From contig JBAYLD010000003.1 in the NCBI GenBank assembly GCA_041664265.1, positions 7,988 through 71,987 on the forward strand: a stretch of DNA of 64,000 nucleotides. The letters run 5' to 3'. Every line of letters starts with the position of its first letter. Position 1 is the stretch's first letter. The position numbers and the translations under genes are program-made. Origin of the DNA: Minisyncoccota bacterium (lineage in GTDB: Bacteria > Patescibacteriota > Minisyncoccia > Phycocordibacterales > Phycocordibacteraceae). The notes under the pieces were generated by a model, which was not told where the DNA came from, did not search any database, and saw only the letters and a list, made by a program, of their open reading frames with translations. This document shows positions 9,918 to 61,198 of the stretch, piece by piece.

Positions 9918-11114
9918 CTAGAGCGAGTAGCTCCAGAGGGAGTCGTCGTTTTTGTTTAGAAACACGAGTGTTGTGGCATCTGGGTCGATCGCGAGCGCAG
10001 TGGCGTCGAGAGAATCCCCGGTTTCTTCTGGGAAATCGAGCACCAGCTGCGCATAGCGGCCCTCGACTTCGATCTTCCAAATCCGATCAGAGAACTGCAC
10101 AGCTCCCTGGTACCAATCATCCGGATACACAGAGTCAGTAGGAGGGTCGAGCGGGATACCGCAGTATACTGAAGAGTCGTCAGCGGCCCACACGCATTTA
10201 TCGACGATCGTAGTGACCGGGAGTGATGTGATGTCGCCCGTCTCGGTGTCAACAAGATCTAATTGCAGAGCGTTATCGAGGACGTAGCTCACCAGCGCCC
10301 ACTTCCCTGAGGGGCTCGCGAGGGCGACGAGACCGTTGAGCGGTCCGGCGATTCGGGAAAAGCGCCCAGCGTCATCGACAAGAAAGGCAGCCCCAGGGAG
10401 TGTGGCGGCTGGCTTGGTATACGCGAGATAGCGCGATTTGCCAGCAAATGAAACACGCAGCGCAGAGAGCGGGGTGCTAAACAGCTCTGCCGTACGCACA
10501 TCGTTTGTGGTACTAAGTGTCGCAACAGAACCAGTGACACCCGAGACGAGTGTGAGCACGCCCGCCGAAGAAACAGCGAGAGCAGAAATATTTTGCGGCA
10601 AAAAGAATCCTTCTGGTGGCGCCTCGGAGCGCGCCGGGAGTGCGTAGGTATTGATCGTAGAGAAATCTTCGCCGGAGAGGTACCGGACGAATGCCGTTTT
10701 TGCATCGGGGACCCACGCGGCAGATTGGATACCCGGGATCGTTTGATTATTCGTTCGGGTGACGGCTCCTGTGCGTGTGCTATAGGAGAAAACGTTTCCG
10801 CTCTGCCGTTCAATATAGTGCACCAGCGTCTCGGGAGAGGAACTTGCGTTTATCGCAGGGGCATTCACCACGGCCTCGCCCGGCACTACCGGTCCCACGC
10901 TTATCTTCACGAGCCGCGCGGATATGGGGGTCGGTTCGCCCGCGGGTGTCGTGGTGCCGGAGTCTGCAGGAAATATACCCTGCCCCGCTAGAGGGAGGTT
11001 TACGTTTGGCGCGACGGTGAGGCTCGCTTTGGGGGTGAAGAAATAGAAATAGACGAACGCACCTACTCCTATCAGGAGTATCAGAATCGCGGCGATGATC
11101 AAGATGCGTCGCAT
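9918..11114 (-). CDS. Membrane-anchored hypothetical protein (N-terminal TM, ~370 aa extracytoplasmic Ser/Thr-rich beta-rich domain); last gene of T4SS-like operon
   Basis: TM helix RRILIIAAILILLIGVGAFVYFYFF; no recognisable catalytic motif; start taken at second Met of ORF 9918-11144. Confidence 0.55.
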   Translation of the reverse strand: MRRILIIAAILILLIGVGAFVYFYFFTPKASLTVAPNVNLPLAGQGIFPADSGTTTPAGEPTPISARLVKISVGPVVPGEAVVNAPAINASSSPETLVHYIERQSGNVFSYSTRTGAVTRTNNQTIPGIQSAAWVPDAKTAFVRYLSGEDFSTINTYALPARSEAPPEGFFLPQNISALAVSSAGVLTLVSGVTGSVATLSTTNDVRTAELFSTPLSALRVSFAGKSRYLAYTKPAATLPGAAFLVDDAGRFSRIAGPLNGLVALASPSGKWALVSYVLDNALQLDLVDTETGDITSLPVTTIVDKCVWAADDSSVYCGIPLDPPTDSVYPDDWYQGAVQFSDRIWKIEVEGRYAQLVLDFPEETGDSLDATALAIDPDATTLVFLNKNDDSLWSYSL

Positions 11115-11118
11115 AGCA

Positions 11119-11895
11119 TTATGGCGTAGGTACGTTGCACCCAACCACGAGGCTTAAACTACCCGGACACGTAAGGGTATTCGTTTTTGGGTCGACGCTC
11201 GTGACTTGGGCGGTTTTCCCGTCTGGGCTTAGGCATTTAGGTTGCTGGGGCCTCCCAGGGATAGCAGAGCAGCTTTTTATGGTGTTCTTGCAATCAGGAT
11301 CATTGGTGCAGAACATCAGTCGCAGGCTGGGGTCGGTAGATACTATTGAGTTTAATCCTCCTGCAAGTGGCGGAGGTGTGGGTGCTATTGGCACTCTTGT
11401 TGATGTTGATGATTTGGTATCGAGTGCCGGAAGGTTCAACGAGAGATTTAGGATGTTCGGATTGATAATGGAGAAGACGATTGCCGGCGAGAGGACGAGG
11501 ATAAGGCCGTATATGGCGTTGTAGATTTTCCCCTTATCATCAGTGATGGTACTGACCGCGTCTTTATGGAAGTAAGCGATATCGAGTCCGGACCATATGA
11601 TCTGGATGATTGCGAGTATCGCGGCAAGCCCGATGAGATATTTATAGAGATTATTGAAGAAGGTGGCGAGCGAAGTTGAATTCACCACACTCGTCACACT
11701 AGCATCAGTAAGTCCGGGGATGGGCGCGAGTGCGACGAAGCTGACACATTTGTTTTCCGCACAAGAAAGCCCCGAAACACAGTCGTTATCGCTCGTACAA
11801 GCACTTCCATTCTGACCGGTACCCGCAGCGAGCACATACGGCGCAAGCCCAAAGAAAAGAGACAAGATTGCTGCAAAGAGGACTGTTTTTCTCAT
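11119..11895 (-). CDS. Secreted cysteine-rich protein with central double-TM hairpin; candidate VirB2/TrbC-like pilin subunit
   Basis: Signal peptide, two hydrophobic helices (LIGLAAILAIIQIIWSGL / IYGLILVLSPAIVFSII) resembling T4SS pilin fold, operonic with VirB4. Confidence 0.4.
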   Translation of the reverse strand: MRKTVLFAAILSLFFGLAPYVLAAGTGQNGSACTSDNDCVSGLSCAENKCVSFVALAPIPGLTDASVTSVVNSTSLATFFNNLYKYLIGLAAILAIIQIIWSGLDIAYFHKDAVSTITDDKGKIYNAIYGLILVLSPAIVFSIINPNILNLSLNLPALDTKSSTSTRVPIAPTPPPLAGGLNSIVSTDPSLRLMFCTNDPDCKNTIKSCSAIPGRPQQPKCLSPDGKTAQVTSVDPKTNTLTCPGSLSLVVGCNVPTP

Positions 11896-12878
11896 AGGCC
11901 AAAGAAGCTAAAGCCGCTCGATGAAGCGCCAAATATGAGAGAGAGCGCGGCGGTCGCTTGCGCAGATTCTCCAGCCGAGGCGACGAGCGAGAGTGAGGCG
12001 CTCCCCTGCCCGCTTCCTGTGGGTCGGAGCGTTATAGAGGTCCCGGTTTGCGCCTCAGACCCGTTCAAGAACCATTGGAGAAGCGGCGCGCCGCCGGTGA
12101 TCGGCAGAGAGAACGGTGCGGCATAGAGCGTATCCTCCGCGCCGTTGATGGTGTAGTTACCAGAGAGTGCGTGCCCGAAGCGAATACCAAGCAGCGGATC
12201 ATTCTCATACACGCGCAGCGAGGGCTCGCTTGGGGTGAGTGAGATCGTTGTGCCACCGACGAGGCTCCCGTCTGAGCTCGCGACTGAGACTGAGACCGAT
12301 CGTGAACGATATTGCAGCGGCGATGCAACGATGATGGTCTCCTTCCCGATGCCTGAGGCTCGCGCGACGTGTGCGCCATCGACGGTCCACGCATAAGCAT
12401 ATGAAGATGGATCGAGCGTCTTGCCTTTTGCATCGCTTAAGCGGGCCATCGCTACAACGCGCACATCTCCCTCAACCGGCACCAGGGGCTTCCCTAGGTA
12501 GAGCGGGGGCGCCGAAGCAATCGGCTCGGCGATGAGCACAACGTCTTGGGGTTGGATAGAAATCGTCTGGCTATGGTTTGCTCCATTCGAAATTATCGTT
12601 ACCACTGCACGCGTGACACTTCCTGTCCTGCCGAGCGGGAGAGCAGTCGGCTGGACGTTCCCGCGATACAGCTCTTTGCCCGCAACCGAGACGATCATGG
12701 TCGCGCTTGCGAGGTCAATTGTAGGAGAGACGACTGAGAGCACCGCCTGGCTGTGAGGAGCTGGATATTGAGGGCTTAGTGAAATAGAAAAAGTTCCTGC
12801 AGTGCCGAGGGTTTGCGCCAAAACGGCGAGGGGCAGTAAGAGGATGAGGACAAGAGCGGTGAAGAGAAAAGAACGCAT
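11892..12878 (-). CDS. Secreted hypothetical protein (signal peptide, Ser/Ala-rich, ~330 aa)
   Basis: Signal peptide MRSFLFTALVLILLLPLAVLA; no motif recognised; in T4SS-like operon. Confidence 0.55.
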   Translation of the reverse strand: MRSFLFTALVLILLLPLAVLAQTLGTAGTFSISLSPQYPAPHSQAVLSVVSPTIDLASATMIVSVAGKELYRGNVQPTALPLGRTGSVTRAVVTIISNGANHSQTISIQPQDVVLIAEPIASAPPLYLGKPLVPVEGDVRVVAMARLSDAKGKTLDPSSYAYAWTVDGAHVARASGIGKETIIVASPLQYRSRSVSVSVASSDGSLVGGTTISLTPSEPSLRVYENDPLLGIRFGHALSGNYTINGAEDTLYAAPFSLPITGGAPLLQWFLNGSEAQTGTSITLRPTGSGQGSASLSLVASAGESAQATAALSLIFGASSSGFSFFGL

Positions 12879-12882
12879 GTCT

Positions 12883-13383
12883 CTAGTATACCCCAGCGTT
12901 CGGCATCGTTTGTTGAGTTTGTTCATATTTTTTCAACACCTTTTTGTCGTTCTCTATCTGCGTTTTGTAGATGCCCCAAACCATAACAAGCACGCTTGCG
13001 CCGAGGCCCCCAAGCGACCAGAGGATGGAGAACGGATTGTCTTTAAACGCACGCCCGTTCGCCGCGAAGATAAAAAAGGTCACCGTGAGCCAACCGGCAA
13101 ACCCGACCGCCATCGCCATAATGGTGCCGAAGGCGATAAGCGCAGGTGCGCCGAGGTACCCGCCAGCGACGGCGCCAGCTCCACACACCAGCCCCCCTAC
13201 GGTTGTTCCAACGACACCACTGACTTTTGTCGTGCAATACAAGGCGGCTGCTGCCGGCCCGAAGAACCAAAAAAAGAGAAAAAAATAGCGCAGTGCGTCA
13301 AAGAGGGCGGCGGCAGCGAGGATCCATGATGCCCCCTTCCAGGTCATTATCTTGGGCGGCTTGCTATTTCTTTTCTGTAGCAT
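12883..13383 (-). CDS. Small polytopic membrane protein (4 predicted TM), T4SS-like operon component
   Basis: Hydropathy by eye; Gly-rich TM segments; overlaps VirB4 stop by 20 nt (translational coupling). Confidence 0.5.
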   Translation of the reverse strand: MLQKRNSKPPKIMTWKGASWILAAAALFDALRYFFLFFWFFGPAAAALYCTTKVSGVVGTTVGGLVCGAGAVAGGYLGAPALIAFGTIMAMAVGFAGWLTVTFFIFAANGRAFKDNPFSILWSLGGLGASVLVMVWGIYKTQIENDKKVLKKYEQTQQTMPNAGVY

Positions 13384-15181
13384 ACCGCGCTTTCTCTTCT
13401 TTTATCGCGAGAAGTTGCGAGGGATCAGAGGTGATGATCTGGTCCTCGGTATAACTGGCGACCACCTTAATCGCGACGTGCTTGAGGCCCGCGAAGAAGA
13501 GTCCCTCGCCCACGCCGGCCTCGAGGAGGAGATATTTCTCTTCGTCGGTGAGATTGAAAGTCTGTTGCAGCACCTCGATGGTTGTCGGGGACTGTTTTAA
13601 CAAGAGTTGCAGAGAAGAGTTGGTGAGAATGGGCCGTCCATAAGGGCTCTTCAAGAAGTCCTCGACGTCTTGGGTGATCGTGCAGACGCCCAGGTAATAT
13701 TTGCGCCCGCGTTTTGCGACTGAATAGAGGAATGACGCCGTATCCTCGCTCTTCATCATCCACCACGCTTCATCGATGATAAGCAGCCGCTTCTTCAGCT
13801 CGTGGCGCACGGCGTTCCAGATGTAATGGGTGATGATGTACATCGCCACTGGCTTGAGCTCATCCTCCATGTCACGCACCGAGAACACTTCAAATTGCTG
13901 CGTGAGATCGATGTTGGTTGGTTGGTTTAAGAATCCCGCCCACGAGCCGCGGGTATATTTAGAGAGCCGTTCGACCAGGGACTCGCTTCCCTCCATGCCC
14001 GAGAGCACTTGTTCGAAGTCAGAAAGGAGCGGCGACTCCGCCCCGGTGAAGTCGGCATCGCCGGTGATGTCCTTGAGCGCGTAGGTCTCGCTGATGGCGC
14101 GGTCAACGATAGCGTCTTCGGCGGGCGAGAGGCCGCCCAACATGATGCGGAAAAGTCCGACCAGCGAGATAATGTTAGAGCGCAGGATGTCCTTCGGGTC
14201 CTCGTCCTCTTTGACCGGCGGGAGGTCAAACGGGTTGATGTGGTGCTCGGAGGAGAGGGATATATGGAAGACGCGCCCGCCGGTCGCCTCGGCGAGCTGG
14301 TCGTATTCGCGCTCGGGGTCGATGACGATGATATCCGTCCCGAACATGAGCGAACGCAGGATCTCGAGTTTTGTGCAGTAGCTTTTACCGGAACCTGACT
14401 TCGCGAAAATAACCGAGTTGTAGTTCTCAAGCGAGAACCGGTCGAAGAGGATGAGTGAGGAATTGTGCCGATTGATGCCGTAAAGAATGCCGCGGTCGCT
14501 CGTGAGGTCGAACGACACGAAGGGGAAGATGGAAGAGAGCGGCGATGAGTTCAGTTTCGAATTGACCAAGAGTTCGTCGGTGCCGATCGGTAGGCACGAG
14601 CGGAATCCTTGCTCTTGTTGGAACAATGCGGGCTTTGTGTAGACCAGTTTAGCGTCAAGGATGCCACGGATGTCGCCCTCGGTCTTGTCTATCTCTTCCT
14701 TCGAGTTGCCGTAGAGCGCGAGGTACAACCCGACGTCGAACAGCTTTTCTTGGGCTTGTTGGAGATTGTTGCGCAGGCTCTCAAGGTCTTGATACGCTGT
14801 GTCCAAGAGTGGGTCGCGCACGAGCCCTTTTGACTCGCGTTCGTTGATCTGGCTCTGGACCTCGGCGACTTTTTTCTGGAAATCGCGCAATGCCCGTTCG
14901 GTCTCGACGGGGTGTATGAACAAAGAGACATCAAGTACCTTATCGAGATTGATGACGGGCGAGAACCAGCTGTCGGCAAGAAAGCGCGGGTAGGAAATGG
15001 TATAGAAGGCGCGGACGAACTTCTCTCCCAGCTCGATTTCGCGTGACCCTATCTTGAGGGCGGTTGGAGCGATGGTGTCGACGAGGTCGAGCGATCCTTG
15101 GGCGTAAATATCCTTGGGCAACACCGGCAGTACCGCGGGTGTCTCCTCCTTCTTCCGGCTGATAAAATCAAGTAGAGCCAT
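13364..15181 (-). CDS. VirB4/TrbE/CagE-family type IV secretion ATPase, C-terminal ATPase portion (605 aa)
   Basis: Walker A FAKSGSGKS, Walker B LLIIDEAWW, conserved VirB4 C-terminal region; lacks the N-terminal domain, which is encoded by the upstream ORF. Confidence 0.8.
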   Translation of the reverse strand: MALLDFISRKKEETPAVLPVLPKDIYAQGSLDLVDTIAPTALKIGSREIELGEKFVRAFYTISYPRFLADSWFSPVINLDKVLDVSLFIHPVETERALRDFQKKVAEVQSQINERESKGLVRDPLLDTAYQDLESLRNNLQQAQEKLFDVGLYLALYGNSKEEIDKTEGDIRGILDAKLVYTKPALFQQEQGFRSCLPIGTDELLVNSKLNSSPLSSIFPFVSFDLTSDRGILYGINRHNSSLILFDRFSLENYNSVIFAKSGSGKSYCTKLEILRSLMFGTDIIVIDPEREYDQLAEATGGRVFHISLSSEHHINPFDLPPVKEDEDPKDILRSNIISLVGLFRIMLGGLSPAEDAIVDRAISETYALKDITGDADFTGAESPLLSDFEQVLSGMEGSESLVERLSKYTRGSWAGFLNQPTNIDLTQQFEVFSVRDMEDELKPVAMYIITHYIWNAVRHELKKRLLIIDEAWWMMKSEDTASFLYSVAKRGRKYYLGVCTITQDVEDFLKSPYGRPILTNSSLQLLLKQSPTTIEVLQQTFNLTDEEKYLLLEAGVGEGLFFAGLKHVAIKVVASYTEDQIITSDPSQLLAIKEEKARYATEKK

Positions 15182-15214: not shown

Positions 15215-15847
15215 TCATGCGAGGCGGATCGGATTCTCGAGTTCTCCCGGGTTAAATGAGCGATAGAGAAGCTCAATGACTTCTTCAGTGCCGAGCGAGA
15301 CCGCCCGCACCCCGGTACCCGCAAGGCCGCCGGCGACAAGCGAGAGCCTTTGGGAGAGTTGCGCGCGATTTTCTTCAAAGGAGGTTTGGGCAGCGGCACT
15401 TTTTGTCGAAGCGCTCTCGTTGCGTAAGAAGCCGATCGTATGTGCAGCGGAGACATGCGGGGCGTACGGGACGACGACATAAAATGACTTCGTCATGATG
15501 TTTGCCTGATCGGCAAAAGAACGGATGAACTCGATATATTCGCGCAATTGGATCCGCATGAGTTCGGTCTTCTGGGCAGCCTCTTTTGCTTCAAGGAGAT
15601 TTAGATAAGGGCGGAGATCCATCTTGCGGGAGTTGATGACGATTTGAATCGAGAAATCGAGCGTGTTGAGGAAATTCTGGAAGCCAAGCGTGATCGCGTG
15701 CTGTTCTTCAGCCGACTTAAGCCCGAAGTTGATGGAGGAGCAGATGAGGATCCCGCGATAGCCGCCGTCCTTAAGGGTGATGATCCCATCCCTGATTTCT
15801 TTGATCGGGACAAACTGTTGTGTAGCTCCTGCTGGTTTCTCCGCCAT
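15215..15847 (-). CDS. VirB4 N-terminal-domain-like protein (211 aa), separate ORF upstream of the ATPase ORF
   Basis: N-terminal motif FVPIKEIRDGIITLKDGGYRGILICSSINFGLKSAEEQ resembles conserved start of VirB4/TcpF/ConE family; start taken at MAEKP (upstream part of ORF 15215-16090 is basic low-complexity and overlaps next gene). Confidence 0.5.
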   Translation of the reverse strand: MAEKPAGATQQFVPIKEIRDGIITLKDGGYRGILICSSINFGLKSAEEQHAITLGFQNFLNTLDFSIQIVINSRKMDLRPYLNLLEAKEAAQKTELMRIQLREYIEFIRSFADQANIMTKSFYVVVPYAPHVSAAHTIGFLRNESASTKSAAAQTSFEENRAQLSQRLSLVAGGLAGTGVRAVSLGTEEVIELLYRSFNPGELENPIRLA

Positions 15848-15848
15848 A

Positions 15849-16286
15849 CTACTTTTGTGCCTCATCCGAGGGCGCGTCTTTGGCGGATACGTCCAACGAC
15901 CATGCAAGTTCCGAAAGCTTTCCCTGCGTGAGTTTTCTGCCAAGGGTGCGCCCCGCGGCGGGCGGCGTCGCCGCACTCGCCACCGCATTCTTCTCAGCTT
16001 CTTGTTGCCCCTGATGCTTCCAAAGGAGAAGCTTTGCGCCCGTATAATAATGCAACCCAGCCTCAAGAACCTCGATAAACGGCTTGCCATTTATCTTATA
16101 AAACGCGAGAGCTGCAGCGAGTGCGACCACGGGTATCGAGAGGAGGATCGCGAGGAGAATCGGCAGATAGGCGAAAAAGATGACGCAGAGCCCGCCGGCG
16201 CCGGCGATATAGATAAATTGTTTCAGGGTCAAAGGCCCTACGATCTTGTCTTCGACCTCAATGAACTGCGGCACTTGGTATTCCAT
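15849..16286 (-). CDS. Small membrane protein, VirB3/PrgI-like candidate (2-3 TM, 145 aa)
   Basis: Position immediately upstream of VirB4 N-domain with 1-nt spacer; hydrophobic core CVIFFAYLPILLAILLSIPVVALAAALAF. Confidence 0.4.
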   Translation of the reverse strand: MEYQVPQFIEVEDKIVGPLTLKQFIYIAGAGGLCVIFFAYLPILLAILLSIPVVALAAALAFYKINGKPFIEVLEAGLHYYTGAKLLLWKHQGQQEAEKNAVASAATPPAAGRTLGRKLTQGKLSELAWSLDVSAKDAPSDEAQK

Positions 16287-17262: not shown

Positions 17263-17309
17263 TGGTGAGTTCACGAAGTGTTCATGAAGGGGGTGATACT
17301 TTTATCGGC

Positions 17310-22612: not shown

Positions 22613-22636
22613 AAAGACCTATTGTATACTGCCCTG

Positions 22637-24042: not shown

Positions 24043-24043
24043 G

Positions 24044-24787: not shown

Positions 24788-24822
24788 GTACCTAATGATA
24801 GCAGGTCGTACGCTCACTCGGG

Positions 24823-26094: not shown

Positions 26095-26102
26095 ACGTTT
26101 GG

Positions 26103-26651: not shown

Positions 26652-27136
26652 GGGAGTCCGCCAGTCTGAGTGATAAGTGTCGAGAGCGAGACCGTACTTG
26701 ATGCGGCAGAACCCGGGTCTTGCCACACGATGCTCACGACCACTTGTTTTGTTTTGTCATTGAAAGGGCTCACGGTACGCGTCGTGGTCGCCAGGGGGAT
26801 CGTGCTCAAGAGCTCATTTGAAAATGAGCCGCTGGGCGGGAGCGCGTCATAGCCGCCCTCGCGTAAGACCTCAATCTCGTTACGGGCGATAGACAATGCG
26901 ATGCCCTGGCTCTTCGAAATCCTCGCTAGCACGCTGCTCTGCAGTACAGACTGCAACAAGAAGAGGATGACACCCACGATAAAGATTGAGATGACGACTT
27001 CGATGAGCGAGAACCCACGTTTCAGTTGTAAGCACGAAGCACGAAGCACGAAATTCGAAACAAATTTAAAATTTAAAATTTGGAATTTAGGATTTGTTTC
27101 GTGCTTCGGATTTCGGATTTCGGATTTCTGCTTCAT
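26648..27136 (-). CDS. Type IV prepilin-like protein (KRGFSLIEVVIS...) with an unusually long 40-aa repeat-encoded leader if translated from the annotated ATG
   Basis: Class III signal motif RGFSLIEV; ATG overlaps pilC stop (ATGA); alternative in-frame GTG start 30 codons downstream would give a 12-aa leader. Confidence 0.65.
   Translation of the reverse strand: MKQKSEIRNPKHETNPKFQILNFKFVSNFVLRASCLQLKRGFSLIEVVISIFIVGVILFLLQSVLQSSVLARISKSQGIALSIARNEIEVLREGGYDALPPSGSFSNELLSTIPLATTTRTVSPFNDKTKQVVVSIVWQDPGSAASSTVSLSTLITQTGGLP
27032..27128. repeat. Tandem heptanucleotide repeats (GTGCTTC x3 and GAAATCC x3 on coding strand) flanking an AT-rich palindromic core (AAATTTTAAATTTTAAATTT), forming a long imperfect hairpin at the pilC-pilin junction
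   Basis: Read directly: plus strand GCACGAA x3 at 27032-27052, CGGATTT x3 at 27107-27127. Confidence 0.8.
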
Positions 27137-28350: not shown

Positions 28351-28351
28351 A

Positions 28352-30100
28352 TCATTCGGTTACGGCGCGGAGGACTTCTTCGAGGCTGGTGATGCCACGC
28401 GCGGCCTTATAGAGGCCGTCCTGAAGCATTGTGAGCATCCCCTCTTTCTTCGCCTGGGCCTCCAGCGCATCGCTCGTGCTCGCATGGAGCATGATCTCGC
28501 GGATGGCAGGCGAGACGGCCATAACCTCATGGATGCCGATGCGGCTCTTATATCCGCTCTCGCATTCGCTTGAGGGCAGCGGCCGATAAAAACGGAGGTC
28601 GTCGAGGCGGGATTCTCTCGTAATCAATTTTTCGTCTTGCAGGGCTTTGAACGCGACGGCGAAGTCGGCATCGCTTGCGATCTTCGCGCGCATTGCTGCG
28701 TCAAGCGCATATTCTTCCTTGCCCTCGACGAGCTTCCTTACCAGCCGCTGCCCGATGATGACGCGAACCGTTGAGGCCAAGAGGAACGGTTCGACGCCCA
28801 TGTCGATAAGGCGCGGGATCGCGCCAGCGGCGCTGTTGGTGTGGATGGTAGAGAGCACCAAGTGGCCGGTGAGGGCGGCATTGATCGCGAGCGAGGCGGT
28901 CTCGCCATCGCGGATCTCGCCGACCATGATGATGTCCGGGTCTTGACGCACGAGCGAGCGCAACCCGTTGGCAAAGGTAAATCCGATTTGGGGGTTCACC
29001 TGCGTCTGGTTGACGCGCTTCATCTGGTATTCGATCGGATCCTCGATCGTTGAGATGTTCACGTCCGGCTGGTTCAAGATGTCGAGCATTGTGTAGAGCG
29101 TGGTCGTCTTCCCTGACCCGGTCGGCCCCGAGATGAGGATAATACCGGTTGTCTGTTTGAGAGCGTTGTGGATGCGCTCCATGTTCTCGCCATGCAGGCC
29201 GAGCACCTCGAGCGTAAAGCCTTCGCCCGTCTCGCGCAGGAGGCGCATCACGGTCTTCTCGCCGAAGAACGTTGGGAGGATAGACACGCGGAACGAGACG
29301 CGATCAGCCTCGGTCTCCATCTTGAACCGGCCGTCCTGTGGGAGGCGCTTCTCGTCTAATTTCAGGTTTGAGAGTACCTTGATGCGCGCGACGATGCCTG
29401 CCGCTGTTGCCTTCGGTAGAGTCATCGCGTCGTGGAGGATGCCGTCGATGCGATAGCGGACGAGCACTTCAGCCTCCATAGGCTCAATATGGATGTCAGA
29501 AGCGCCTTGCACGATTGCATGCCGCAGGAGCGTGTCCACGATGCGCACGATCGGCAGATCCTCGGCCATCTTCTTCAAGTCCTCGTTTGAGAGATCCTTG
29601 TTGCCCTCTGCGATGACGCTAATTTTTCCCGCCTCAGCCGATATGATGTCGCCGAACTCGTCCTTGAGCGATTTCTGGTATTGCAGGAGCGTGTACTTAA
29701 TGCTCTCGGTGTCGGTGAGCCGCGGCAATATCTTGAGGCCCGTCTTCTTGCGCACCGAATCAATGGAGGCGAGATCTTCAACATCGAGCATCGCCACCTC
29801 AAGAGAGTCATCGGTCTTCTTAAACGCGATAATGTTGTGCGTGCGCGCGATCGGCTCCGGGATAAGCGCGAGAGCGTCAATGGGGACGCGATGCTCCTTC
29901 AGATTTACGAACGGGATGCCGAGTACATAGGCCTGGATGCGCCGCAATGCATCCTCGGTAATCGAGCCGCGCGAGACGAGAATGTCGCCGAGCGGTTGTT
30001 CCTTTACCCGCGCCTCTTCTACGGCGTCATCAATCTCCTTCTTGGCGACAAGGCCGGAGTCAATAATGAACTCTTTCAGCTCACCATCCGAAACGTGCAT
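28352..30100 (-). CDS. pilB: Type IV pilus assembly ATPase PilB (GspE family)
   Basis: N-terminal GspII_E domain, Walker A GPTGSGKTTT, Asp box, His box, tetracysteine-like CxxC...; start at MHVSDGEL inside ORF 28352-30226. Confidence 0.9.
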   Translation of the reverse strand: MHVSDGELKEFIIDSGLVAKKEIDDAVEEARVKEQPLGDILVSRGSITEDALRRIQAYVLGIPFVNLKEHRVPIDALALIPEPIARTHNIIAFKKTDDSLEVAMLDVEDLASIDSVRKKTGLKILPRLTDTESIKYTLLQYQKSLKDEFGDIISAEAGKISVIAEGNKDLSNEDLKKMAEDLPIVRIVDTLLRHAIVQGASDIHIEPMEAEVLVRYRIDGILHDAMTLPKATAAGIVARIKVLSNLKLDEKRLPQDGRFKMETEADRVSFRVSILPTFFGEKTVMRLLRETGEGFTLEVLGLHGENMERIHNALKQTTGIILISGPTGSGKTTTLYTMLDILNQPDVNISTIEDPIEYQMKRVNQTQVNPQIGFTFANGLRSLVRQDPDIIMVGEIRDGETASLAINAALTGHLVLSTIHTNSAAGAIPRLIDMGVEPFLLASTVRVIIGQRLVRKLVEGKEEYALDAAMRAKIASDADFAVAFKALQDEKLITRESRLDDLRFYRPLPSSECESGYKSRIGIHEVMAVSPAIREIMLHASTSDALEAQAKKEGMLTMLQDGLYKAARGITSLEEVLRAVTE

Positions 30101-30108
30101 ATAGATAA

Positions 30109-30141
30109 AGTATAGCGCGCCGTTGCCTCGGCAATGCGCGC
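30109..30141 (-). promoter_or_regulatory. Predicted pilB promoter -10 TATACT (8 nt before ATG) immediately followed upstream by GC-rich inverted repeat GCGCGCCGTTGCC-tc-GGCAATGCGCGC (possible operator)
   Basis: Seen in sequence; -10 hexamer identical to other predicted promoters in window. Confidence 0.35.
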
Positions 30142-30253
30142 AGTACACATATAATAATAGATAGACGCGGTAATTTTGAAAAAAAGATACTGAGGTGTAC
30201 GATGGCGGTGGATCGTACAAATTCATCGAGTCAACAAGAGAAAGGAGGCTGGC

Positions 30254-50359: not shown

Positions 50360-51390
50360 TCACTGAGGAGAGCAGACTCTGCCGACGGTGCAGGTGCGCA
50401 GCGGATTCGTCGCACCGCGCACTTCGAAGTGGAGGTGGGTGCCGGTCGATCGGCCGGTCGATCCGACATAGCCGATGACCTGTCCTTGTACCACAGATTG
50501 CCCGACGCTCACCGAATTTTTGTTGTTGTGGGAATAGAGCGTTTGCGTTCCGTTGGAGTGCTGGATCACGATGTAGTTCCCATATCCGCCGTTCCAACCG
50601 CCACCTCCGCGTACGACAATGACGGTGCCGTTTGCTGCCGCATATATCGGCGTGCCGCGCGGTGCGCCAAGATCGATACCATTCCACCCGTGGATACCTT
50701 GAGTGAGAATGGCGCCCGGCAGAGGATTGATGAAGAAGCCCGGCAAGAACTTCCCGCTCCCTCCTTGATACGAGGGGGTGAACGAATCACGGCCGATCGA
50801 AGTTTTTCCGGCGGGGACAGTGGCGGAAAGCTCTCCGCCCGGGATGATGATCGTCGAGCCGATAGCGAGGGGCTTCCCGGAGTCAAGGCCGTTAAAGGTC
50901 GCGATCTCGTCAGCGTCAGCGCCATATTTTTTTGCGAGCGACTTCAAGGTATCGCCCTTTACTACCGTGCGCTCGACGCCGGAGACCGGTAGGATAATGA
51001 GCGTATCGCCCGAATGCACGTCGCGTGCGCTCTTGAGGTTATTTGCCCATAAAACGGTATTCATCGAAACGCCGAACATGTCCGCGATGTCAGAGAGCGT
51101 ATCGCCCGGGCGTACGACATATACTGAGATGCGGTCAGACGGTGCCGCGCCTGCGACATCGGCGATCGTGCCGGACGGGCCAGTATAGGCGAGGAGGGCG
51201 ACGTCTCCGCTCGTTTGGAGATGGTCGCTTAGTCCCTTGTTCGGGTTCGGATCAAGGTTTGTTGCGGCCTTCAGGTAGTAGGGCGGAGCCGACGAATCAG
51301 GGGTATGTGCTGCCGATGTAGCGCCGGCCGATTGTGAAAACGGCCAGAACGCGTCAACGTGGCTCGGTATACTCAGTATGGCGGACGCGA
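50360..51390 (-). CDS. LysM-domain M23 family peptidoglycan endopeptidase; ORF continues upstream of track start (51079) through a second LysM and a TM/signal segment, with no in-frame ATG (non-canonical start or indel)
   Basis: M23 motifs HxxxD / HLHFEV, LysM repeats (GDTLSDIA, GDTLKSLA); upstream frame open to ~51390 by manual translation. Confidence 0.7.
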
Positions 51391-53591: not shown

Positions 53592-54251
53592 TTACGGCAA
53601 CACGAATGTCGCCGTGCGAATTTTTTCTCTACGTTCGCCTCCTCTCGTCGCTTTGTAAATCTCCGCCGAGATTGTCTTTGTTGAAGCGTCGAACGAAACA
53701 GTGAAATTTCCGCCGCCAAGGCCCGCGCTTTCCTGATAGGTTTCTACGCTCGAGAGCTTCGAGTTCGGGACGCTTTTGATCGAAGATTTTCCGACTTCGT
53801 AATAAAATATCTCGTTGAGATTGGTCGAGATGGCATACGTGTCTGATTCAATATATCCGTCATCTAACCTCAAATTAGCGCCCTCTCCGATCTTTCTCCA
53901 GTTTTCTCTGTCTACCAAGAGGAAAGTGGTTCCCTTTGGGGTACCGCAACCGATAAGCGCTCTGAACGGATCGTAATATTTCAGCACACAACTAGAGATC
54001 GGCTGAGTAAGAAGTCCGATCGTGTCGTTTCCGAGCGTGTCGTAATACGCGCCCACGAGCTTTTTCTCCTCGGAGGAGAGATTCTCATAGAAGGCCTTTT
54101 CGCCAAGCAGGATCTCGCTTTGGGTTGCTGGACTGTATCCGGAATTTTTCCGTGTCTCCTGCGCATACATCCATACCCCGATACCGACGAGAACGACAAC
54201 AACAAACATAAGTACAAATACAGAGACAGAACTTTTTCTGGAATTTTCCAT
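53592..54251 (-). CDS. Hypothetical membrane-anchored protein (one N-terminal TM)
   Basis: TM VFVLMFVVVVLVGIGVWMY; no motif. Confidence 0.5.
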   Translation of the reverse strand: MENSRKSSVSVFVLMFVVVVLVGIGVWMYAQETRKNSGYSPATQSEILLGEKAFYENLSSEEKKLVGAYYDTLGNDTIGLLTQPISSCVLKYYDPFRALIGCGTPKGTTFLLVDRENWRKIGEGANLRLDDGYIESDTYAISTNLNEIFYYEVGKSSIKSVPNSKLSSVETYQESAGLGGGNFTVSFDASTKTISAEIYKATRGGERREKIRTATFVLP

Positions 54252-54329: not shown

Positions 54330-54575
54330 ATGGCTACAACAAAGGAACGGATTTTGGTGACCCTTACGCCCGAGATGTCTCGGGAATTAAAGGCACGTGC
54401 TAAACGTGAAAAAAGTCCTCGAGCAACAATTGCAACACGTCTGCTTCGAGATGCGATAGAAGATATTTCTGACGAAGAAGACCGTTACCTCTCAGTAGTC
54501 GGTGACCGGATACTTGCAACAACGAAACGTTGGTATTCGCACGAAGAAGTTTGGGGGAAGAATTGTGGGAAATAA
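54330..54575 (+). CDS. Type II antitoxin (ribbon-helix-helix/RelB-DinJ-like)
   Basis: Small acidic protein with N-terminal RHH-like region, immediately upstream of RelE/ParE-like ORF. Confidence 0.6.
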   Translation: MATTKERILVTLTPEMSRELKARAKREKSPRATIATRLLRDAIEDISDEEDRYLSVVGDRILATTKRWYSHEEVWGKNCGK

Positions 54576-54580
54576 AACCC

Positions 54581-54844
54581 ATGTACCAAATCCAATACTC
54601 GGGTCATGTACGATCTGTAGAAATTCCTAAGCTGGATCCTGCGATAAGGATGGTCATCCTGCAGGCAATTGAACTCAAGCTCATGACCGCACCTGAAGTG
54701 TTTGGAAAACCTCTTCGACATACGCTACGTTTGTTGCGAGCGCTTCGTGTTGGTGATTGGCGGGTAGTCTATCAGCTCTCGGGCGAGGTTGTGTACGTGG
54801 TGACCATCCGACACCGCAGACAAGGCTATGACGATCTTTCATAA
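54581..54844 (+). CDS. RelE/ParE family type II toxin
   Basis: C-terminal RVGDWRVVYQLSGEVVYVVTIRHRRQGY signature; start at MYQIQYS inside ORF 54530-54844. Confidence 0.7.
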   Translation: MYQIQYSGHVRSVEIPKLDPAIRMVILQAIELKLMTAPEVFGKPLRHTLRLLRALRVGDWRVVYQLSGEVVYVVTIRHRRQGYDDLS

Positions 54845-55716: not shown

Positions 55717-56754
55717 ATGGGGAGGATTCTCGAACATTGGCGTATACCTGCCGCGGTGCTTTTTTCGGCGATGCTGATTGTGGGCGCATACCTGTTTGCG
55801 CGCGGTATCGGGTCGCCTTCTACCGCAGAGGCTTCAGCCGAATCGGCGCTCCTAAAGGCGATCGCGACGAAGGATTCAGATGCCGACGGTCTCCCTGATT
55901 GGGAGGAGGCGCTGTATGGCTCTGATCCGCGCACTATTGATTCTTTCAACCTCGGAATGACTGATGGCGAAGCAGTTGCGAGAGGTCTGGTTGTGCCAAA
56001 GGCTATTGCTAATATAAAAGTCGCGACCTCAACCGCGTCAGGTGCGTTTATTGCGGACGATTCGCTTCCGCCCGCTCCCGCAGAAGGAACTATCACCGCC
56101 GCATTCGCAAAAAATTTCTTCACGCTCTACCTTGCTGCAAAGCAGGCAAACGGCGGCGCGGATCTCTCTGAAGCGGAGATAACCGATATTTCTGATCGGG
56201 CGCTGAGTTCGCTCTCGTCGTCGGTCACCGCCACGCCCGATTTCAAGTCAACGAGTGACCTCAAAATTTCAGGATCTGGCGCGGATGCCCTACGGGCCTT
56301 TGCGGTGAGCGCAGAGGCGATCCTTCTGAAGAACACCAGCAGCGCGACGACTAGCGAGATCAATTATCTTCGGTACGCGGTTGAAGGCGATGATGCAGTA
56401 GCGCTGTCACACATCATCTCGATAGCGAAGGCATACCGGAACTCTGCAGCCGGGCTCTCGGTGCTCTCGGTGCCTGCCGAGCTTGCGGCAGACGATCTCG
56501 CACTCATCAATGCGATGGCGCGGGTGAGCGAGATAACGACCGACTTCGCGCGCGTGGAGACCGACCCGATGGCAACCATGCTCGCACTCCAGCAGTATCC
56601 GCAGGCGGTGCTCGCACTTGGTACTGCCTTTATCAACATCGGCAGGATATACGCGACCGCCAGCATCACCTTGCCCGCCGGTTCGCCGGGTGCCTCTTTC
56701 GCCAATCTCATGGTAGATGTTGCGAACCAGCAGGCCGTTGCTAAAAAGCCATGA
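55717..56754 (+). CDS. Membrane-anchored hypothetical protein (N-terminal TM + ~310-aa extracytoplasmic Ala/Ser-rich domain); VirB8-like topology
   Basis: TM AAVLFSAMLIVGAYLFA; topology only. Confidence 0.45.
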   Translation: MGRILEHWRIPAAVLFSAMLIVGAYLFARGIGSPSTAEASAESALLKAIATKDSDADGLPDWEEALYGSDPRTIDSFNLGMTDGEAVARGLVVPKAIANIKVATSTASGAFIADDSLPPAPAEGTITAAFAKNFFTLYLAAKQANGGADLSEAEITDISDRALSSLSSSVTATPDFKSTSDLKISGSGADALRAFAVSAEAILLKNTSSATTSEINYLRYAVEGDDAVALSHIISIAKAYRNSAAGLSVLSVPAELAADDLALINAMARVSEITTDFARVETDPMATMLALQQYPQAVLALGTAFINIGRIYATASITLPAGSPGASFANLMVDVANQQAVAKKP

Positions 56755-58508
56755 AATCGCGCCCTCTCGCCACCACGTTCGCGATATTCCTCGCCCTTAC
56801 GCTCCTAGCTCCTTCTGTTTTCCTCATAGCACCGCAGAGAGCGCGAGCACAATGGACGGTAAACGTGAATTCCGATATATCCATCCCCAGTATCAAAACA
56901 ATGGTGGAGAGCACTATCAGCGCCATTAAAAATAGCATTACGGCCGTTGCAACAGTGACGAGTGCGGCCGCGAATACGGCGATGCAGATCAATGACTATG
57001 TACTCCAACCGCTCGCGTTCGCGGTGTCGGGAGATTTGTTGAGAGCTATAACTTCAGGTGTTATCGCGTTTGTTATCGGTAAGGCAAACAGTACTGGCTT
57101 GCCGCAGTTTATCACCGACCTGCAAGCCTCTATGCAGACGGTGGGCGATTCGCAGGCGCTGGCATTCTTCACCCAATGGGAGAGGAATTCAAAATCGCCC
57201 TTTGCTTCATCAATTGCTTCGTCACTTCGCGCAAACTATCTCCAGAATACGAGCATGGCGGGATTCTGGGCCGCCAACATGGACACGCTCTCGAGATCGT
57301 CAAAAGACGCGAATAGGTTCCTCGCGGGCGACTGGTCGCAAGGAGGCGCGGGAGCCTGGTTCGCGCTCACGACCCAAGACCAAAACAATCCCTATGCTCT
57401 TTATAGGAGAGCACAAGGCCAGCTTGGTTCGCTCGTAAGCAGTGCCCAAACGACTCGCACCACCGAGCTTAATTGGGGGCAGGGAATGATGTCGTGGTGC
57501 GGGGGCGACACAGGTGCCTCTAATGTCTCTTTGTTGGCGAAGGGTGTCAGTTCGGGAGATCCTTGCACCAACGCTGACGGCACGCCGGGCACGATTAGAA
57601 CCCCTGGTTCGGTCATCTTGGCATCGCTCAACAAGGCGCTTGGGGCCGATCAGGATCAGGTGGCTCGCTTAGGTAATGTTGGCCCGGAGATCAACGGCAT
57701 ATTGAGGAATATCGCGACAGTGGCACAAACAGTCCAGTTTGGATCGCAATTACTCGGTGGTTCCGGATCGGGGGGTCTCTTTGGTGTCGGACAATCTTCT
57801 GGGGCGAATCAGACCTCCCGACTCGCTCAGTATCAGAGCGCGTCAGGAAGTATGGGCGTCACCGGATCCCAAGTCATCCAAAACTCGTCAACGTATCTGC
57901 CTTCTAGTGCCGATATGTCGAGCCGGCTCGCAGAATATCAGACATCGTGGGATACGATCAGGGTCGCGACGAGTGCAGCATCAGACGGTGTTATCGCACT
58001 CGCGGGGTACTGCACTGATCAGGCGAAAGCCGCGCAAGACCTTATGGAAGGGAGGTACGCAGGTGACCCTTATGCGATAGAGATTCTCGACCAATTCATC
58101 ACGACGGCGAGCAGTACGCGGGTAAGTGCGCATGTGGCTCTCTCAAGCCAAGTCGCATCGGCGTTTGATCAAATAGCCAAGGCAGATGCGATTAGGGCGG
58201 CTGCGGCCGCTATGGTGGAGCGCGTGAAAGATGAAGCGAATAACACGAATACCAATCCGGATGCATACACTGCCGATGTACAGGCGCTCCAAACAATGGC
58301 ACCAACCGCCGGAGACGCCGGCAACGCGTTACAAGATGCTCAAGCCTTCGGGTCAGCAGCAGCGAATCCTGCAGGGTCGCTTACTGTGTCGGGCGGCTCA
58401 CTGATCGACCGGATGAACCTCATTACGCAAAATGCCCTTGCGCTTAAGAGTGCGTGCGATCTACCATCGGGGACTGCTTTACTTGCTCCGCCTACTAATT
58501 TCGACTAG
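56751..58508 (+). CDS. Secreted hypothetical protein (signal peptide, 585 aa, Ser/Ala/Gly-rich)
   Basis: Signal peptide ending ...PQRARAQ; no motif. Confidence 0.5.
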   Translation: MKSRPLATTFAIFLALTLLAPSVFLIAPQRARAQWTVNVNSDISIPSIKTMVESTISAIKNSITAVATVTSAAANTAMQINDYVLQPLAFAVSGDLLRAITSGVIAFVIGKANSTGLPQFITDLQASMQTVGDSQALAFFTQWERNSKSPFASSIASSLRANYLQNTSMAGFWAANMDTLSRSSKDANRFLAGDWSQGGAGAWFALTTQDQNNPYALYRRAQGQLGSLVSSAQTTRTTELNWGQGMMSWCGGDTGASNVSLLAKGVSSGDPCTNADGTPGTIRTPGSVILASLNKALGADQDQVARLGNVGPEINGILRNIATVAQTVQFGSQLLGGSGSGGLFGVGQSSGANQTSRLAQYQSASGSMGVTGSQVIQNSSTYLPSSADMSSRLAEYQTSWDTIRVATSAASDGVIALAGYCTDQAKAAQDLMEGRYAGDPYAIEILDQFITTASSTRVSAHVALSSQVASAFDQIAKADAIRAAAAAMVERVKDEANNTNTNPDAYTADVQALQTMAPTAGDAGNALQDAQAFGSAAANPAGSLTVSGGSLIDRMNLITQNALALKSACDLPSGTALLAPPTNFD

Positions 58509-58509
58509 C

Positions 58510-60588
58510 ATGCCGCGCGCGCTCATCACCTCGTTTGCCATCCTGACGCTCGCGCTCGGCTCTATGGGCGCGTACGCCCCTGTTGTGAATGCCGCTCCCG
58601 CAGCGCAGGCCGATGCCAAAACGGTCGATGGCACAAATAAGCCGAAAGTAGAAACACCACAACAACAACAGGACGATGCCTACAACAGTGTCATGATCAA
58701 AATCATGGGTCTTTTCGCGTGGCTCCTGGGCGTCGCGGTGATTACGCTCGATTATGCGGTGTACTACACCGTCGTGAAGATGGGCTCCTATATAAACAGT
58801 CTCTCCGCCATCGGCGTCGCCTGGCGGATCCTGCGCGACCTGGGCAATATCGCGCTCATATTCGGCTTCCTCGCGATCGGCATCAACACCATTCTCGGAG
58901 AAAATTATTACGGCTGGGGCCAGAAGCTGCTCCCGAAATTGCTCATAGTCGCGGTGTTTATCAACTTCTCGCTCTTTATATCCGAGGCGGTGATCGACAC
59001 AGGGAATCTCTTTGCGACGCAATTTTACACGCAGATCAACGGTGGGGTATTACCGACGGCGGATTCTTTGTCCGGGAAGACTCTCCAGAATATCCAAAAT
59101 GAAGGCATCTCGAACAAGATAATGGCCCAGTTGGGAATGCAGAATATTTATAGCGATGCACTCGTCAATAAAGCTGTGTTTCAAGGTCCGAATCCATGGT
59201 TCATCGGCTTCATGGGCATTTTGCTTTTCATCGTTGCGGCGTTCGTGATGTTCTCGCTCGCGTTCATTCTCATCGCACGTTTTGTCGCGCTCGTGTTTGT
59301 CATCATCCTCTCTCCCCTCGGTCTCGCCGGTCTCGCGATACCCAATCTCTCGGGTGTAGCAAGTCAATGGTGGGATACGCTCGTGAAGCAAACCATCACT
59401 GCGCCCGTCTTGCTCCTCATGCTCTATATCGCGCTCGCGGTTATCACTGACGTGCAGTTCCTCACCGGTCTTGGGGTGGAGGGTGCCAGCGCCGGAGCGG
59501 CGACGGGGTTCATTAATGGTGCCAATCTGGCCGGCTTCGCCGGTTTCATCCTCTCCTTCTTGGTGGCGATGGGGCTCCTGCTCGTGGTGACGATATATGC
59601 GAAAAAACTATCCGCCTTCGGCGCTGGCTGGGCGACAAAGGCCGCCGGTACTGTCGTGGGTGGGGCGGTCGGCTACGGTCTCGTCGGCGGCGCGTCGCTC
59701 GTTGGTCGTGGAACGTTTGGCCTTGCTGGTCGTGCACTCAACAACAAGGGCGTTCAGGCGCGTGCCGCAGGCGGCGGATTCGGCGGTGCCCTAGCGAAGG
59801 GGTTTGCATTCACCGGTCGGAAACTTGAAAATCGAACCTATGACCTGCGCAATGTGAAGACCGTCGGCAGGGTGGGCGGCGCGATCTCGGGTGCGCTCAG
59901 CTCTGGCCAGCTCGGCGGGTCCGGATTCGAAGCGGTCGGCGGCGGGATGGGGAAGGGTGCCACGGTTACTGCCAAGCAGGCGGTTGACAAGACGATCGAA
60001 GGGTACAAGTACATCAAGCCGTTCTCGGGTGACTGGTGGCGCGACCAGCAGAAAGAATATGAAAAATCGGCTGCTGAACGAGATCGCAAGAAAGTCGTGG
60101 CGGATTCGAGCAGTCCGGAATTCGTAAAAACCATCAAGAAGATGTCTGCCGATGAGCTCTCTGAACTCAAGGGCATTCGAGGAGCTTTGGACAAGTATGT
60201 TACTGCTCTTTCTCCAGCAAAATATTCTGAGTTGCAGAAGAGCGATAAGTTATTAAAGAGCGAAAAGGGGAATCTGAAAACTGCTTGGAACGAGCGTTTC
60301 AGCTCGACAAACGCGGCGTCAACACTTAGTACGTTCACTCCAGAAGAGATCGCTTCACTCGATGCAGATATTCTCAAGAGACCGGAGGTTGCTTCGAACC
60401 TTGGAGTACGCGAAATGGAAGCCATTCGTAACAAAAAGACACTCGATATGGATCAGCGCCGTGCGGTCCACGCAACTATTCAGGCTCAGGCGGCAAGTGA
60501 TCCCGCGTATAAAGCCACAATCGATGCCTACTTTGCTGATCCTAAGAACAACATAGGCAGCAAGAGAAAAGAATATTGGGACGTATAA
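58510..60588 (+). CDS. Polytopic membrane protein (signal peptide + ~6-7 TM + Gly-rich segment + ~250-aa soluble C-terminus); VirB6/TrbL-like candidate
   Basis: Hydropathy by eye; architecture matches VirB6/TcpH-like T4SS channel components; start at MPRALITS inside ORF 58432-60588. Confidence 0.4.
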   Translation: MPRALITSFAILTLALGSMGAYAPVVNAAPAAQADAKTVDGTNKPKVETPQQQQDDAYNSVMIKIMGLFAWLLGVAVITLDYAVYYTVVKMGSYINSLSAIGVAWRILRDLGNIALIFGFLAIGINTILGENYYGWGQKLLPKLLIVAVFINFSLFISEAVIDTGNLFATQFYTQINGGVLPTADSLSGKTLQNIQNEGISNKIMAQLGMQNIYSDALVNKAVFQGPNPWFIGFMGILLFIVAAFVMFSLAFILIARFVALVFVIILSPLGLAGLAIPNLSGVASQWWDTLVKQTITAPVLLLMLYIALAVITDVQFLTGLGVEGASAGAATGFINGANLAGFAGFILSFLVAMGLLLVVTIYAKKLSAFGAGWATKAAGTVVGGAVGYGLVGGASLVGRGTFGLAGRALNNKGVQARAAGGGFGGALAKGFAFTGRKLENRTYDLRNVKTVGRVGGAISGALSSGQLGGSGFEAVGGGMGKGATVTAKQAVDKTIEGYKYIKPFSGDWWRDQQKEYEKSAAERDRKKVVADSSSPEFVKTIKKMSADELSELKGIRGALDKYVTALSPAKYSELQKSDKLLKSEKGNLKTAWNERFSSTNAASTLSTFTPEEIASLDADILKRPEVASNLGVREMEAIRNKKTLDMDQRRAVHATIQAQAASDPAYKATIDAYFADPKNNIGSKRKEYWDV

Positions 60589-60595
60589 TTGAATT

Positions 60596-61198
60596 ATGAA
60601 AGACCTTACTCCAGAAGAAGCAGGGCGGTGGATGACGGCAGTGCCGCTCTTGGTACAAGAAGCGGTTACGAGCCCCTCGACCCAGCAGGTTCTTGAACAG
60701 ATAGGCAGGCAGTATGCGCTGCATGTTGATGTGCTTGATACTCTCGTGAAGCTTACGAGCTACATGCTCCTTGGCTATGTGGGGCCGGAAGAATTTTTGC
60801 AAGAAATGCGCGCGGCGCGCGTCGCAGATCAGCAGGCGCGGCAGATCATCGGCGACATAAACCAGAAGATATTTATGCCGCTTCGCCTGAAAATGATGCA
60901 AGCGACCGTAGCGCCAGCTTCGCCGAAGCCAGTGATCCCTCAGCCGCGGCCGGTGCAGACGAGTGTTCCGATGCCAAAGTATGCTCCGCCGGTAGCCCAG
61001 AGGCCGATGATTGCCGCCGCGCCCGCAAATGATGAGAAGCTGCTTGAAGATCACGAGGAGCCTCATATTGATATTAAAAAAGAGGTGCCGGCTAATCTTC
61101 CCGGAGTCATCCACATCGAACCTCAAAAGCCGGTTGCCCCAATTCCTGAACGGCCCTACTCTATCGATCCCTATCGCGAGCCGATTGATAGAAAATAG
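60596..61198 (+). CDS. Hypothetical protein with Pro-rich C-terminal half
   Basis: ORF with PKPVIPQPRPVQ... region; no motif. Confidence 0.45.
   Translation: MKDLTPEEAGRWMTAVPLLVQEAVTSPSTQQVLEQIGRQYALHVDVLDTLVKLTSYMLLGYVGPEEFLQEMRAARVADQQARQIIGDINQKIFMPLRLKMMQATVAPASPKPVIPQPRPVQTSVPMPKYAPPVAQRPMIAAAPANDEKLLEDHEEPHIDIKKEVPANLPGVIHIEPQKPVAPIPERPYSIDPYREPIDRK

Follow-up and report, generated by a model that had tools for sequence, protein, structure and literature searches.

The 64,000-nucleotide (nt) stretch of DNA analysed here, hereafter the window, belongs to a Minisyncoccota bacterium (assembly GCA_041664265.1, contig JBAYLD010000003.1, positions 7,988 to 71,987 of the forward strand). At 55717-61198 of the window the list of open reading frames (ORFs) shows four plus-strand ORFs, designated g1, g2, g3 and g4, which are packed in an operon-like manner and are considered here together with a VirB4 locus of the same window as putative parts of a type IV secretion system (T4SS). 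Listed below are features of the four-gene module, with the evidence used for each:

55717..56754, plus strand: g1, 345 amino acids (aa), first gene of the module (ORF, topology, synteny)
56751..58508, plus strand: g2, 585 aa, secreted (ORF, hydropathy, AlphaFold)
58510..60588, plus strand: g3, 692 aa, divergent extended VirB6/TrbL protein (Pfam matches of homologues, Foldseek)
60596..61198, plus strand: g4, 200 aa, Pro-rich, without transmembrane (TM) helix or signal peptide (ORF, hydropathy)

The stop codon of g1 and the start codon of g2 overlap as ATGA, the ATG of g3 follows the g2 stop after 2 nt, and the gap between g3 and g4 is 7 nt. For g3 the start at MPRALIT (692 aa) was taken; the alternative upstream ATG at 58432 would give a protein of 718 aa. 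The NCBI gene call (P0001) corresponds to the 692-aa form with 100% identity and coverage, and the N-termini of the homologues agree with it. The call of g2 by the Joint Genome Institute (P0121, 535 aa) is 50 residues short and covers 91% of the 585-aa ORF, and it therefore probably lacks the signal peptide that the homologues conserve. The module is set directly downstream of rsmA/ksgA and directly upstream of rpsL, rpsG and fusA. The window as a whole is core chromosomal DNA from the small, metagenome-assembled genome of a Kaiserbacteria-like member of Candidatus Paceibacterota. A set of co-directional genes for a bitopic, a secreted, a polytopic and a Pro-rich protein, in this order, had been described in the original prediction made from this DNA, and the description was borne out by the ORFs and the hydropathy analysis.

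The alignment of g3 was used to scan genomes at one genome per species, by which relatives were found in 301 genomes; 80 loci were kept, and the set then comprised 83 loci. Beside g3, with the order kept, g1 was found in 72, g2 in 78 and g4 in 69 of these 83 loci, and the block rsmA-g1-g2-g3-g4-rpsL-rpsG was syntenic in about 70 of them. The presence of g3 relatives in 301 species-level genomes and the conserved order of the neighbours indicate that g1 to g4 are genuine genes and not chance ORFs. Since tblastn searches with g2 and g3 against 72,556 plasmids gave zero matches, the module is not a recently acquired conjugative element. Nothing significant was obtained when g1, g2, g3 and g4 themselves were scanned against Pfam and NCBIfam. 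Between 54.2 and 61.5 kb, promoter-like sites were no commoner than in shuffled sequence, and the terminator-like sites (15, versus a shuffled mean of 7.6) marked no clear operon boundary.

The hydropathy profile of g3 shows a signal-like N-terminus and about six to seven TM helices between residues 59 and 370, so that the protein has the at least five TM helices expected of VirB6/TrbL. In the AlphaFold model (mean predicted local distance difference test score, pLDDT, 66; 70-85 in the TM helices) the long helices match the hydropathy TM segments, followed by a Gly-rich stretch of low confidence (residues 370-506) and a confidently predicted helical tail (507-692). In total 548 homologues of g3 were detected, and the 120 listed were all named Paceibacterota, Kaiserbacteria, Minisyncoccia or plain "bacterium". 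When 37 aligned homologues were scanned singly against Pfam, 10 of the 37 matched the TrbL model PF04610 (best E-value 1.9e-7), two of them (P0008 with 31.5 bits and P0019 with 26.2 bits) above its curated gathering cutoff of 25.9. The match covers positions 24-214 of the 215 profile positions and falls on the TM region, and the TrbL-matching homologues share 53-54% identity with g3 over 93-95% of its length. A Foldseek search of the g3 model against the whole PDB placed TrwI/VirB6 chains of plasmid R388 at ranks 1-6, the best being 8rtd_L (E-value 1.5e-3, probability 1.00, TM-score 0.41 normalised to target length). The profile of the g3 family searched against PDB sequences returned low-complexity and coiled-coil noise and no VirB6 chain. 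The TrbL matches of the homologues and the TrwI/VirB6 fold ranks are each modest, yet they are independent and concordant, and g3 is on these grounds a divergent "extended" VirB6/TrbL protein, the long hydrophilic C-terminus placing it with the extended VirB6 type discussed in PMC12857230. The VirB6/TrbL-like character proposed for this gene from topology, with AlphaFold and Foldseek named as a check, was thus supported by the homologue matches to PF04610 and by the six best PDB folds.

The second locus of interest lies on the minus strand between 16.3 and 9.9 kb and has the following features:

15849..16286, minus strand: PrgI/VirB3-like small membrane protein (PF12666, 4.9e-11), first gene of this ATPase/pilin half
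15215..15847, minus strand: TrsD/TraC-like protein of ~210 aa, whose homologues carry PF26593 (TraC-like)
13364..15181, minus strand: VirB4-type ATPase (PF19044, TraG P-loop, 2.1e-25; AAA_10)
12883..13383, minus strand: tm166, small polytopic membrane protein of 166 aa, overlapping the virB4 stop and found at the same position in relatives
11892..12926, minus strand: p344, membrane-anchored or secreted protein of 344 aa (hydropathy, position in relatives)
11119..11895, minus strand: VirB2-like T4SS pilin (PF18895, 1.1e-6; TrbC, 4.6e-4)
9918..11144, minus strand: p408, membrane-anchored protein of 408 aa, closing the cluster and convergent with yidC

The Pfam matches PF12666, PF19044 and PF18895 agree with the VirB3/VirB4/VirB2-like operon that had been proposed for this locus. 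The 291-aa ORF upstream of virB4 (15215-16090) was found to be over-extended, as its homologues have 210-222 aa and the internal start maps to 15847; the window copy of this TrsD/TraC-like protein itself had no Pfam match, PF26593 being found in its homologues. The locus begins about 220 nt beyond yidC in the replication-origin neighbourhood of the window (dnaN, dnaA, rnpA and yidC at 5.8-9.7 kb, 5844-9694), where the cumulative GC skew has its minimum at about 8-10 kb. The start of g1 is 39.4 kb away from that of prgI (16286).

The genomic context of both loci was compared across relatives using the g3-centred loci and a reciprocal VirB4 scan of metagenome contigs, from which 80 loci were kept, 54 of the 80 having enough upstream DNA for classification by tblastn. 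In three genomes (L012, L025, L028) the genes rsmA-g1-g2-g3-g4-prgI-trsD-virB4 stand on one strand; the cluster of L025 continues past tm166 and p344 as far as the pilin gene, that of L028 as far as p408, the order past prgI being that of the window's locus from 16.3 to 9.9 kb, and the L028 cluster then meets yidC, rnpA and dnaA, as the window does. Half of the classified metagenome loci (27 of 54) have this contiguous layout (uvrD-rsmA-g1-g2-g3-g4-prgI-trsD-virB4-...-p408-yidC-rnpA-dnaA-dnaN), with VirB4 73-90% identical to that of the window. The other 27 of the 54 have a split layout (M50 peptidase-prgI-...-p408-yidC-rnpA-dnaA-dnaN), with VirB4 86-94% identical to that of the window. Profile hidden Markov models (HMMs) of the g1-g4 families added six more contiguous loci and showed the order g1-(g2)-g3-g4-prgI wherever the upstream DNA reaches far enough. 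Altogether, 36 related loci (3 genomes and 33 metagenome contigs) have g4 immediately upstream of prgI-trsD-virB4 and on one strand with them; the spacing between g4 and prgI in contiguous loci is usually 20-60 nt, and further downstream, as far as the DNA extends, the genes follow in the order seen at 16.3-9.9 kb of the window. A third layout was found on metagenome contig JADMIO011409266.1 (L125, 1-8200), on which g3-g4-prgI-trsD-virB4 is followed by two ORFs (252 and 234 aa) and rpsL-rpsG-fusA; the cluster stands there upstream of the str operon, and the p344, pilin and p408 genes were not detected on the contig.

In relatives at a greater distance the eleven genes thus form one cluster, whereas the clade of the window has them in two. 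A single inversion with breakpoints g4|prgI and rpsL|M50 could interconvert these two layouts, and the history may be more complex; in two look-ups, M50 homologues were found in split-type loci only. It had been proposed that the module might supply the channel that the VirB4 locus lacks, both being parts of one T4SS-like machine divided between two loci, and that co-occurrence of the loci in related genomes would be informative. This proposal is upheld by the TrbL matches of the homologues, the VirB6 folds and the finding that both loci adjoin in the same order and strand in the 36 related loci, and with the VirB6 homology of g3 and the contiguous loci the original prediction stands unrefuted.

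In the window itself (16302-19300, minus strand), a site-2 (M50) protease gene abuts prgI, and a ComEC gene (Competence PF03772, 1e-42) lies about 0.8 kb away from it. An extra gene of 86 aa with a weak DUF3467 match stands between M50 and prgI in four loci (L164-L167), and the window has no such gene.

The two kinds of components differ in their rate of change. VirB4 is 73-95% identical across relatives (L084-L163), above DnaA, DnaN and UvrD of the same genomes (in L136, for example, identity to the window is 75% for VirB4, 55% for DnaA and 37% for DnaN), whereas g1-g4, p344 and p408 share 25-40% identity in the same genomes in which VirB4 is highly conserved. This contrast between VirB4 and the envelope proteins fits host-specific adaptation of the exposed parts.

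The g1 protein has a single N-terminal TM helix (residues 8-32, hydropathy), and some 250 aa of it form a conserved domain outside the cytoplasm. The one element of the protein that could be recognised is a TSP3_bac repeat (PF18884, Ca-binding type) at residues ~53-71, just past the membrane anchor, which was also found in 28 of 43 close and 34 of 45 distant homologues. The family is large (2468 representative clusters at 50% identity with an E-value of at most 1e-3, and 785 at 1e-10), nearly all members having 320-350 aa. No VirB8 family was among the Pfam matches of the 43 close and 45 distant homologues, and the g1 profile searched against all PDB sequences, even with E-values up to 10, found Ca-binding motifs only and no VirB8-type chain. 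The VirB8-like topology that had been pointed out for g1 (one TM helix and an extracytoplasmic domain) stood, while a VirB8 profile signal was found neither in Pfam nor in the PDB profile searches; a VirB8 assignment of g1, made from topology, is not supported.

The g2 protein (15.7% Ala, 11.3% Ser) has a signal-like segment at residues 5-30 and a conserved N-terminal region rich in Trp, Gly and Cys, in which four Cys are invariant; a Gly/Ser linker then leads to an elongated helical bundle at the C-terminus (385-575). AlphaFold predicted this bundle with pLDDT above 90 at residues 390-570 (93-98), and the N-terminal 380 residues poorly. Foldseek with the g2 model retrieved generic helical-bundle surface proteins only and no VirB5, TraC or TrwJ, and g2 had no significant relative in Pfam or the PDB, the PDB profile search yielding low-complexity or coiled-coil noise and no VirB5 chain. 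One weak lead was DUF4141, matched by homologue P0207 at residues 18-66 (signal peptide and first helix) with 29.4 bits, below the cutoff of 30; papers mentioning DUF4141 are silent on its function. Position beside VirB6 and predicted shape suggest a VirB5-like stalk or tip role for g2. A PrgB-like adhesin, to which the earlier reading had also pointed, was not recovered, as neither g2 nor 41 of its homologues matched an adhesin family in Pfam; PrgB has not been reported in Patescibacteria (PMC12102498).

The g4 protein has neither a TM helix nor a signal peptide and contains 13.5% Pro. Its N-terminal domain of some 100 aa is conserved and is joined by a Pro-rich linker to the C-terminal motif YSxDPYREPID, which is likewise conserved and in which DPYRE is invariant. 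Pfam and PDB profile searches gave no relative of g4.

Chromosomal T4SS of the Patescibacteria, or candidate phyla radiation (CPR), have been described by Quinonero-Coronel et al. (2025; PMC12102498). Their VirB4 clade is related to the monoderm MPF-FATA class, the partners of VirB4 are TrsD (the most abundant), PrgI/VirB3, VirB6 and VirB2-like pilins, VirB8 is nearly always missing and few relaxases occur, and in Paceibacteria the genes lie near dnaA, dnaN, rnpA and ksgA (PMC12102498). A T4SS is reported to be essential for epibiotic growth of the saccharibacterium Southlakia epibionticum (Wang et al., 2023, as cited in PMC12857230); the function of these systems is described as not established (PMC12857230, PMC11665869), and effector export or uptake of host material has been proposed. 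The cluster described here belongs to this known Patescibacteria T4SS and is not a new kind of system. It shares the VirB4, TrsD-like, PrgI/VirB3, VirB6 and VirB2-like pilin genes, the chromosomal location near dnaA/dnaN/rnpA/ksgA and the lack of a relaxase among the window ORFs scanned. It differs in that the VirB6 gene of the window lies 39 kb from virB4, outside the neighbourhood of 20 coding sequences on either side used in PMC12102498, in that g3 is missed by the Pfam TrbL model, and in that g1, g2 and g4 match no Pfam T4SS family and, as far as the available text of PMC12102498 goes, are not named there.

TrwI/VirB6 of R388 (PDB 7o3v, 8rt9, 8rtd; PF04610) resembles g3 in its polytopic core of at least five TM helices, as its best structural match and through the profile matches of family members, and the large hydrophilic C-terminal extension of g3 recalls the extended VirB6 proteins (PMC12857230). 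Unlike TrwI, g3 has 692 aa instead of ~340 aa, and only ~15% of residues are identical when the structures are aligned; g3 further has a signal peptide that looks cleavable, ~130 aa rich in Gly and a tail of ~185 aa that is helical, and its host is a monoderm without VirB7/9/10. The Gram-positive conjugation channels of pCF10 (PrgH/PrgI/PrgJ/PrgL) and pCW3 (TcpH/TcpE/TcpF/TcpC) likewise have a PrgI/TcpE-type VirB3, a VirB4 ATPase and no outer membrane (PMC12102498), and their VirB6-like protein is also large and polytopic, with a C-terminal domain that is soluble. In contrast to these, the window shows no signal of a VirB8-like protein (PrgL/TcpC) or a PrgB-type adhesin, has a VirB2-like pilin, and has no relaxase or coupling protein among the ORFs scanned, g2 and g3 being unmatched in the 72,556 plasmids. 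The Rickettsiales vir homologue (rvh) T4SS is also chromosomal, with genes scattered over several loci (PMC12102498) and with enlarged VirB6 proteins; it is, however, of the MPF-T class, belongs to diderms and includes VirB7-11 as well as several paralogues of VirB6, whereas the system described here has a single VirB6, is of monoderm type and is split in one sub-clade only.

We consider it very probable that g1-g4 are the membrane and envelope module of a chromosomal, conjugation-derived T4SS of the kind typical of Patescibacteria and that the VirB4 half belongs to the same system. Beyond this, what g1, g2 and g4 do, the stoichiometry and the substrate carried are our inference. In this arrangement g3 would be the polytopic platform in the cytoplasmic membrane at which the VirB3/VirB4 motor docks, and a VirB2-like pilin or a substrate conduit would be built from this platform, both by analogy with R388 TrwI. 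The anchored g1 with its predicted Ca-binding repeat and the secreted, putatively disulfide-bonded helical-bundle protein g2 would be extracytoplasmic subunits spanning the wall and may stand where other systems have VirB8 and VirB5; g4, having neither signal nor TM helix, is probably a cytoplasmic adaptor. It is quite possible, if short of probable, that g1, g2 and g4 are unrecognised Paceibacteria-specific T4SS subunits always encoded with VirB6, g1 and g2 standing in for VirB8 and for the stalk or tip protein VirB5, for which searches by homology have come up empty in these bacteria, at the host-contacting, fast-evolving end.

Several observations weigh against assigning both loci to one T4SS. 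The searches with g1, g2 and g4 yielded no function or known fold; the g3 sequence itself stays below every Pfam and NCBIfam threshold, with no TrbL match in Pfam at an E-value of up to 1; and its fold match is weak in absolute terms (E-value about 1e-3, TM-score about 0.4, mean pLDDT 66). In this genome the halves stand 39 kb apart on opposite strands and are therefore not co-transcribed here. No coupling protein or relaxase was found among the larger window ORFs scanned. Both halves also lie in a conserved core neighbourhood (rsmA, rpsL, oriC), and their adjacency in relatives could partly reflect conserved synteny rather than function. Taken to its end, this last point would make the adjacency a matter of stable gene order in the core genome around the origin, with no coupling in function, and the TrbL likeness of g3 a convergence. 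The stably ordered housekeeping genes flanking both halves (uvrD, rsmA, rpsL, yidC, dnaA) and the modest TM-score of g3 are in keeping with such an explanation, which is nevertheless hardly credible: the TrbL matches of homologues above the Pfam cutoff rest on sequence and not just on topology, the six best PDB matches are all VirB6 with no other membrane family among them, same-strand gaps of 20-60 nt indicate an operon, and L125 keeps g3-g4-prgI-trsD-virB4 though its downstream neighbours differ.

The original prediction had itself allowed for an unrelated surface or adhesion system. That the cluster serves as a surface, adhesion or envelope system of its own, without relation to the VirB4 locus, is highly improbable and was rejected, because g3 is a VirB6/TrbL homologue and because in 36 loci g1-g4 immediately precede prgI-trsD-virB4 on one strand, which largely refutes the idea; in its favour are the lack of T4SS family signal in g1, g2 and g4, the resemblance of the confidently predicted g2 domain to generic elongated helical-bundle surface receptors, and the position of the cluster between rsmA and rpsL in the window, far from virB4. 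A further possibility accepts g3 as a member of the VirB6 family and supposes that the module works alone or with another machine, uncoupled from VirB4 in the split lineage. The split is indeed fixed across the window's clade (M50 is upstream of prgI in 27 loci, and rpsL follows the module in 70 of the 83 g3 loci), the stretch that separates the loci carries genes for PilB, PilC and ComEC, and VirB6 paralogues with separate roles are known from Rickettsiales. Yet all eleven genes are intact and conserved in the split lineage, VirB4 is strongly constrained there (86-94% identity in the split clade), the VirB4 half holds no other VirB6 candidate with family signal, and the T4SS loci of Rickettsia are scattered and nevertheless functional (PMC12102498), so that such an uncoupling appears unlikely.

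Among the neighbouring genes, one further feature may touch on the T4SS formed by the two halves:

50360..51079, minus strand: protein with LysM and M23 peptidase domains (Pfam), conserved three genes upstream of g1 in relatives, including those with the contiguous layout

This peptidase is a possible cell-wall-opening (VirB1-like) partner whose membership in the system is uncertain; M23/LysM proteins of VirB1 type are linked to virB4 in Paceibacteria (PMC12102498). Just upstream of the module, between uvrD and rsmA, the window carries a ParE-family toxin gene (104 aa, PF05016, 2.5e-6) overlapped by an antitoxin-like ORF (81 aa; together 54330-54844), a pair that is absent at this place in the annotated relatives L001 and L002. 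A membrane-anchored protein of 219 aa without family match is encoded between uvrD and this pair (53592-54251, minus strand). The region between the two T4SS loci is taken up by housekeeping genes, those for RecJ, PGK, ComEC, NusA, RNase Y, a poly(A) polymerase-family nucleotidyltransferase, four tRNAs and PilB/PilC. The PilB-type ATPase (28352-30226; T2SSE, 1e-124) and the PilC-type platform protein (27133-28350; T2SSF) are encoded on the minus strand, and further unannotated ORFs lie downstream of them within 22000-30226 of the same strand.

The Patescibacteria T4SS is among the few machines shown to be essential for host-dependent growth. The analysis newly assigns the VirB6 of a Kaiserbacteria-like lineage, which lies outside the virB4-centred neighbourhood and escapes the Pfam TrbL model, and it reveals a conserved VirB6 module with three unannotated partners that are prime candidates for envelope-spanning, host-contacting subunits. 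If g1, g2 and g4 are such envelope subunits, they would define the host-contacting end of a machine that is presumed to be essential to life as an epibiont.

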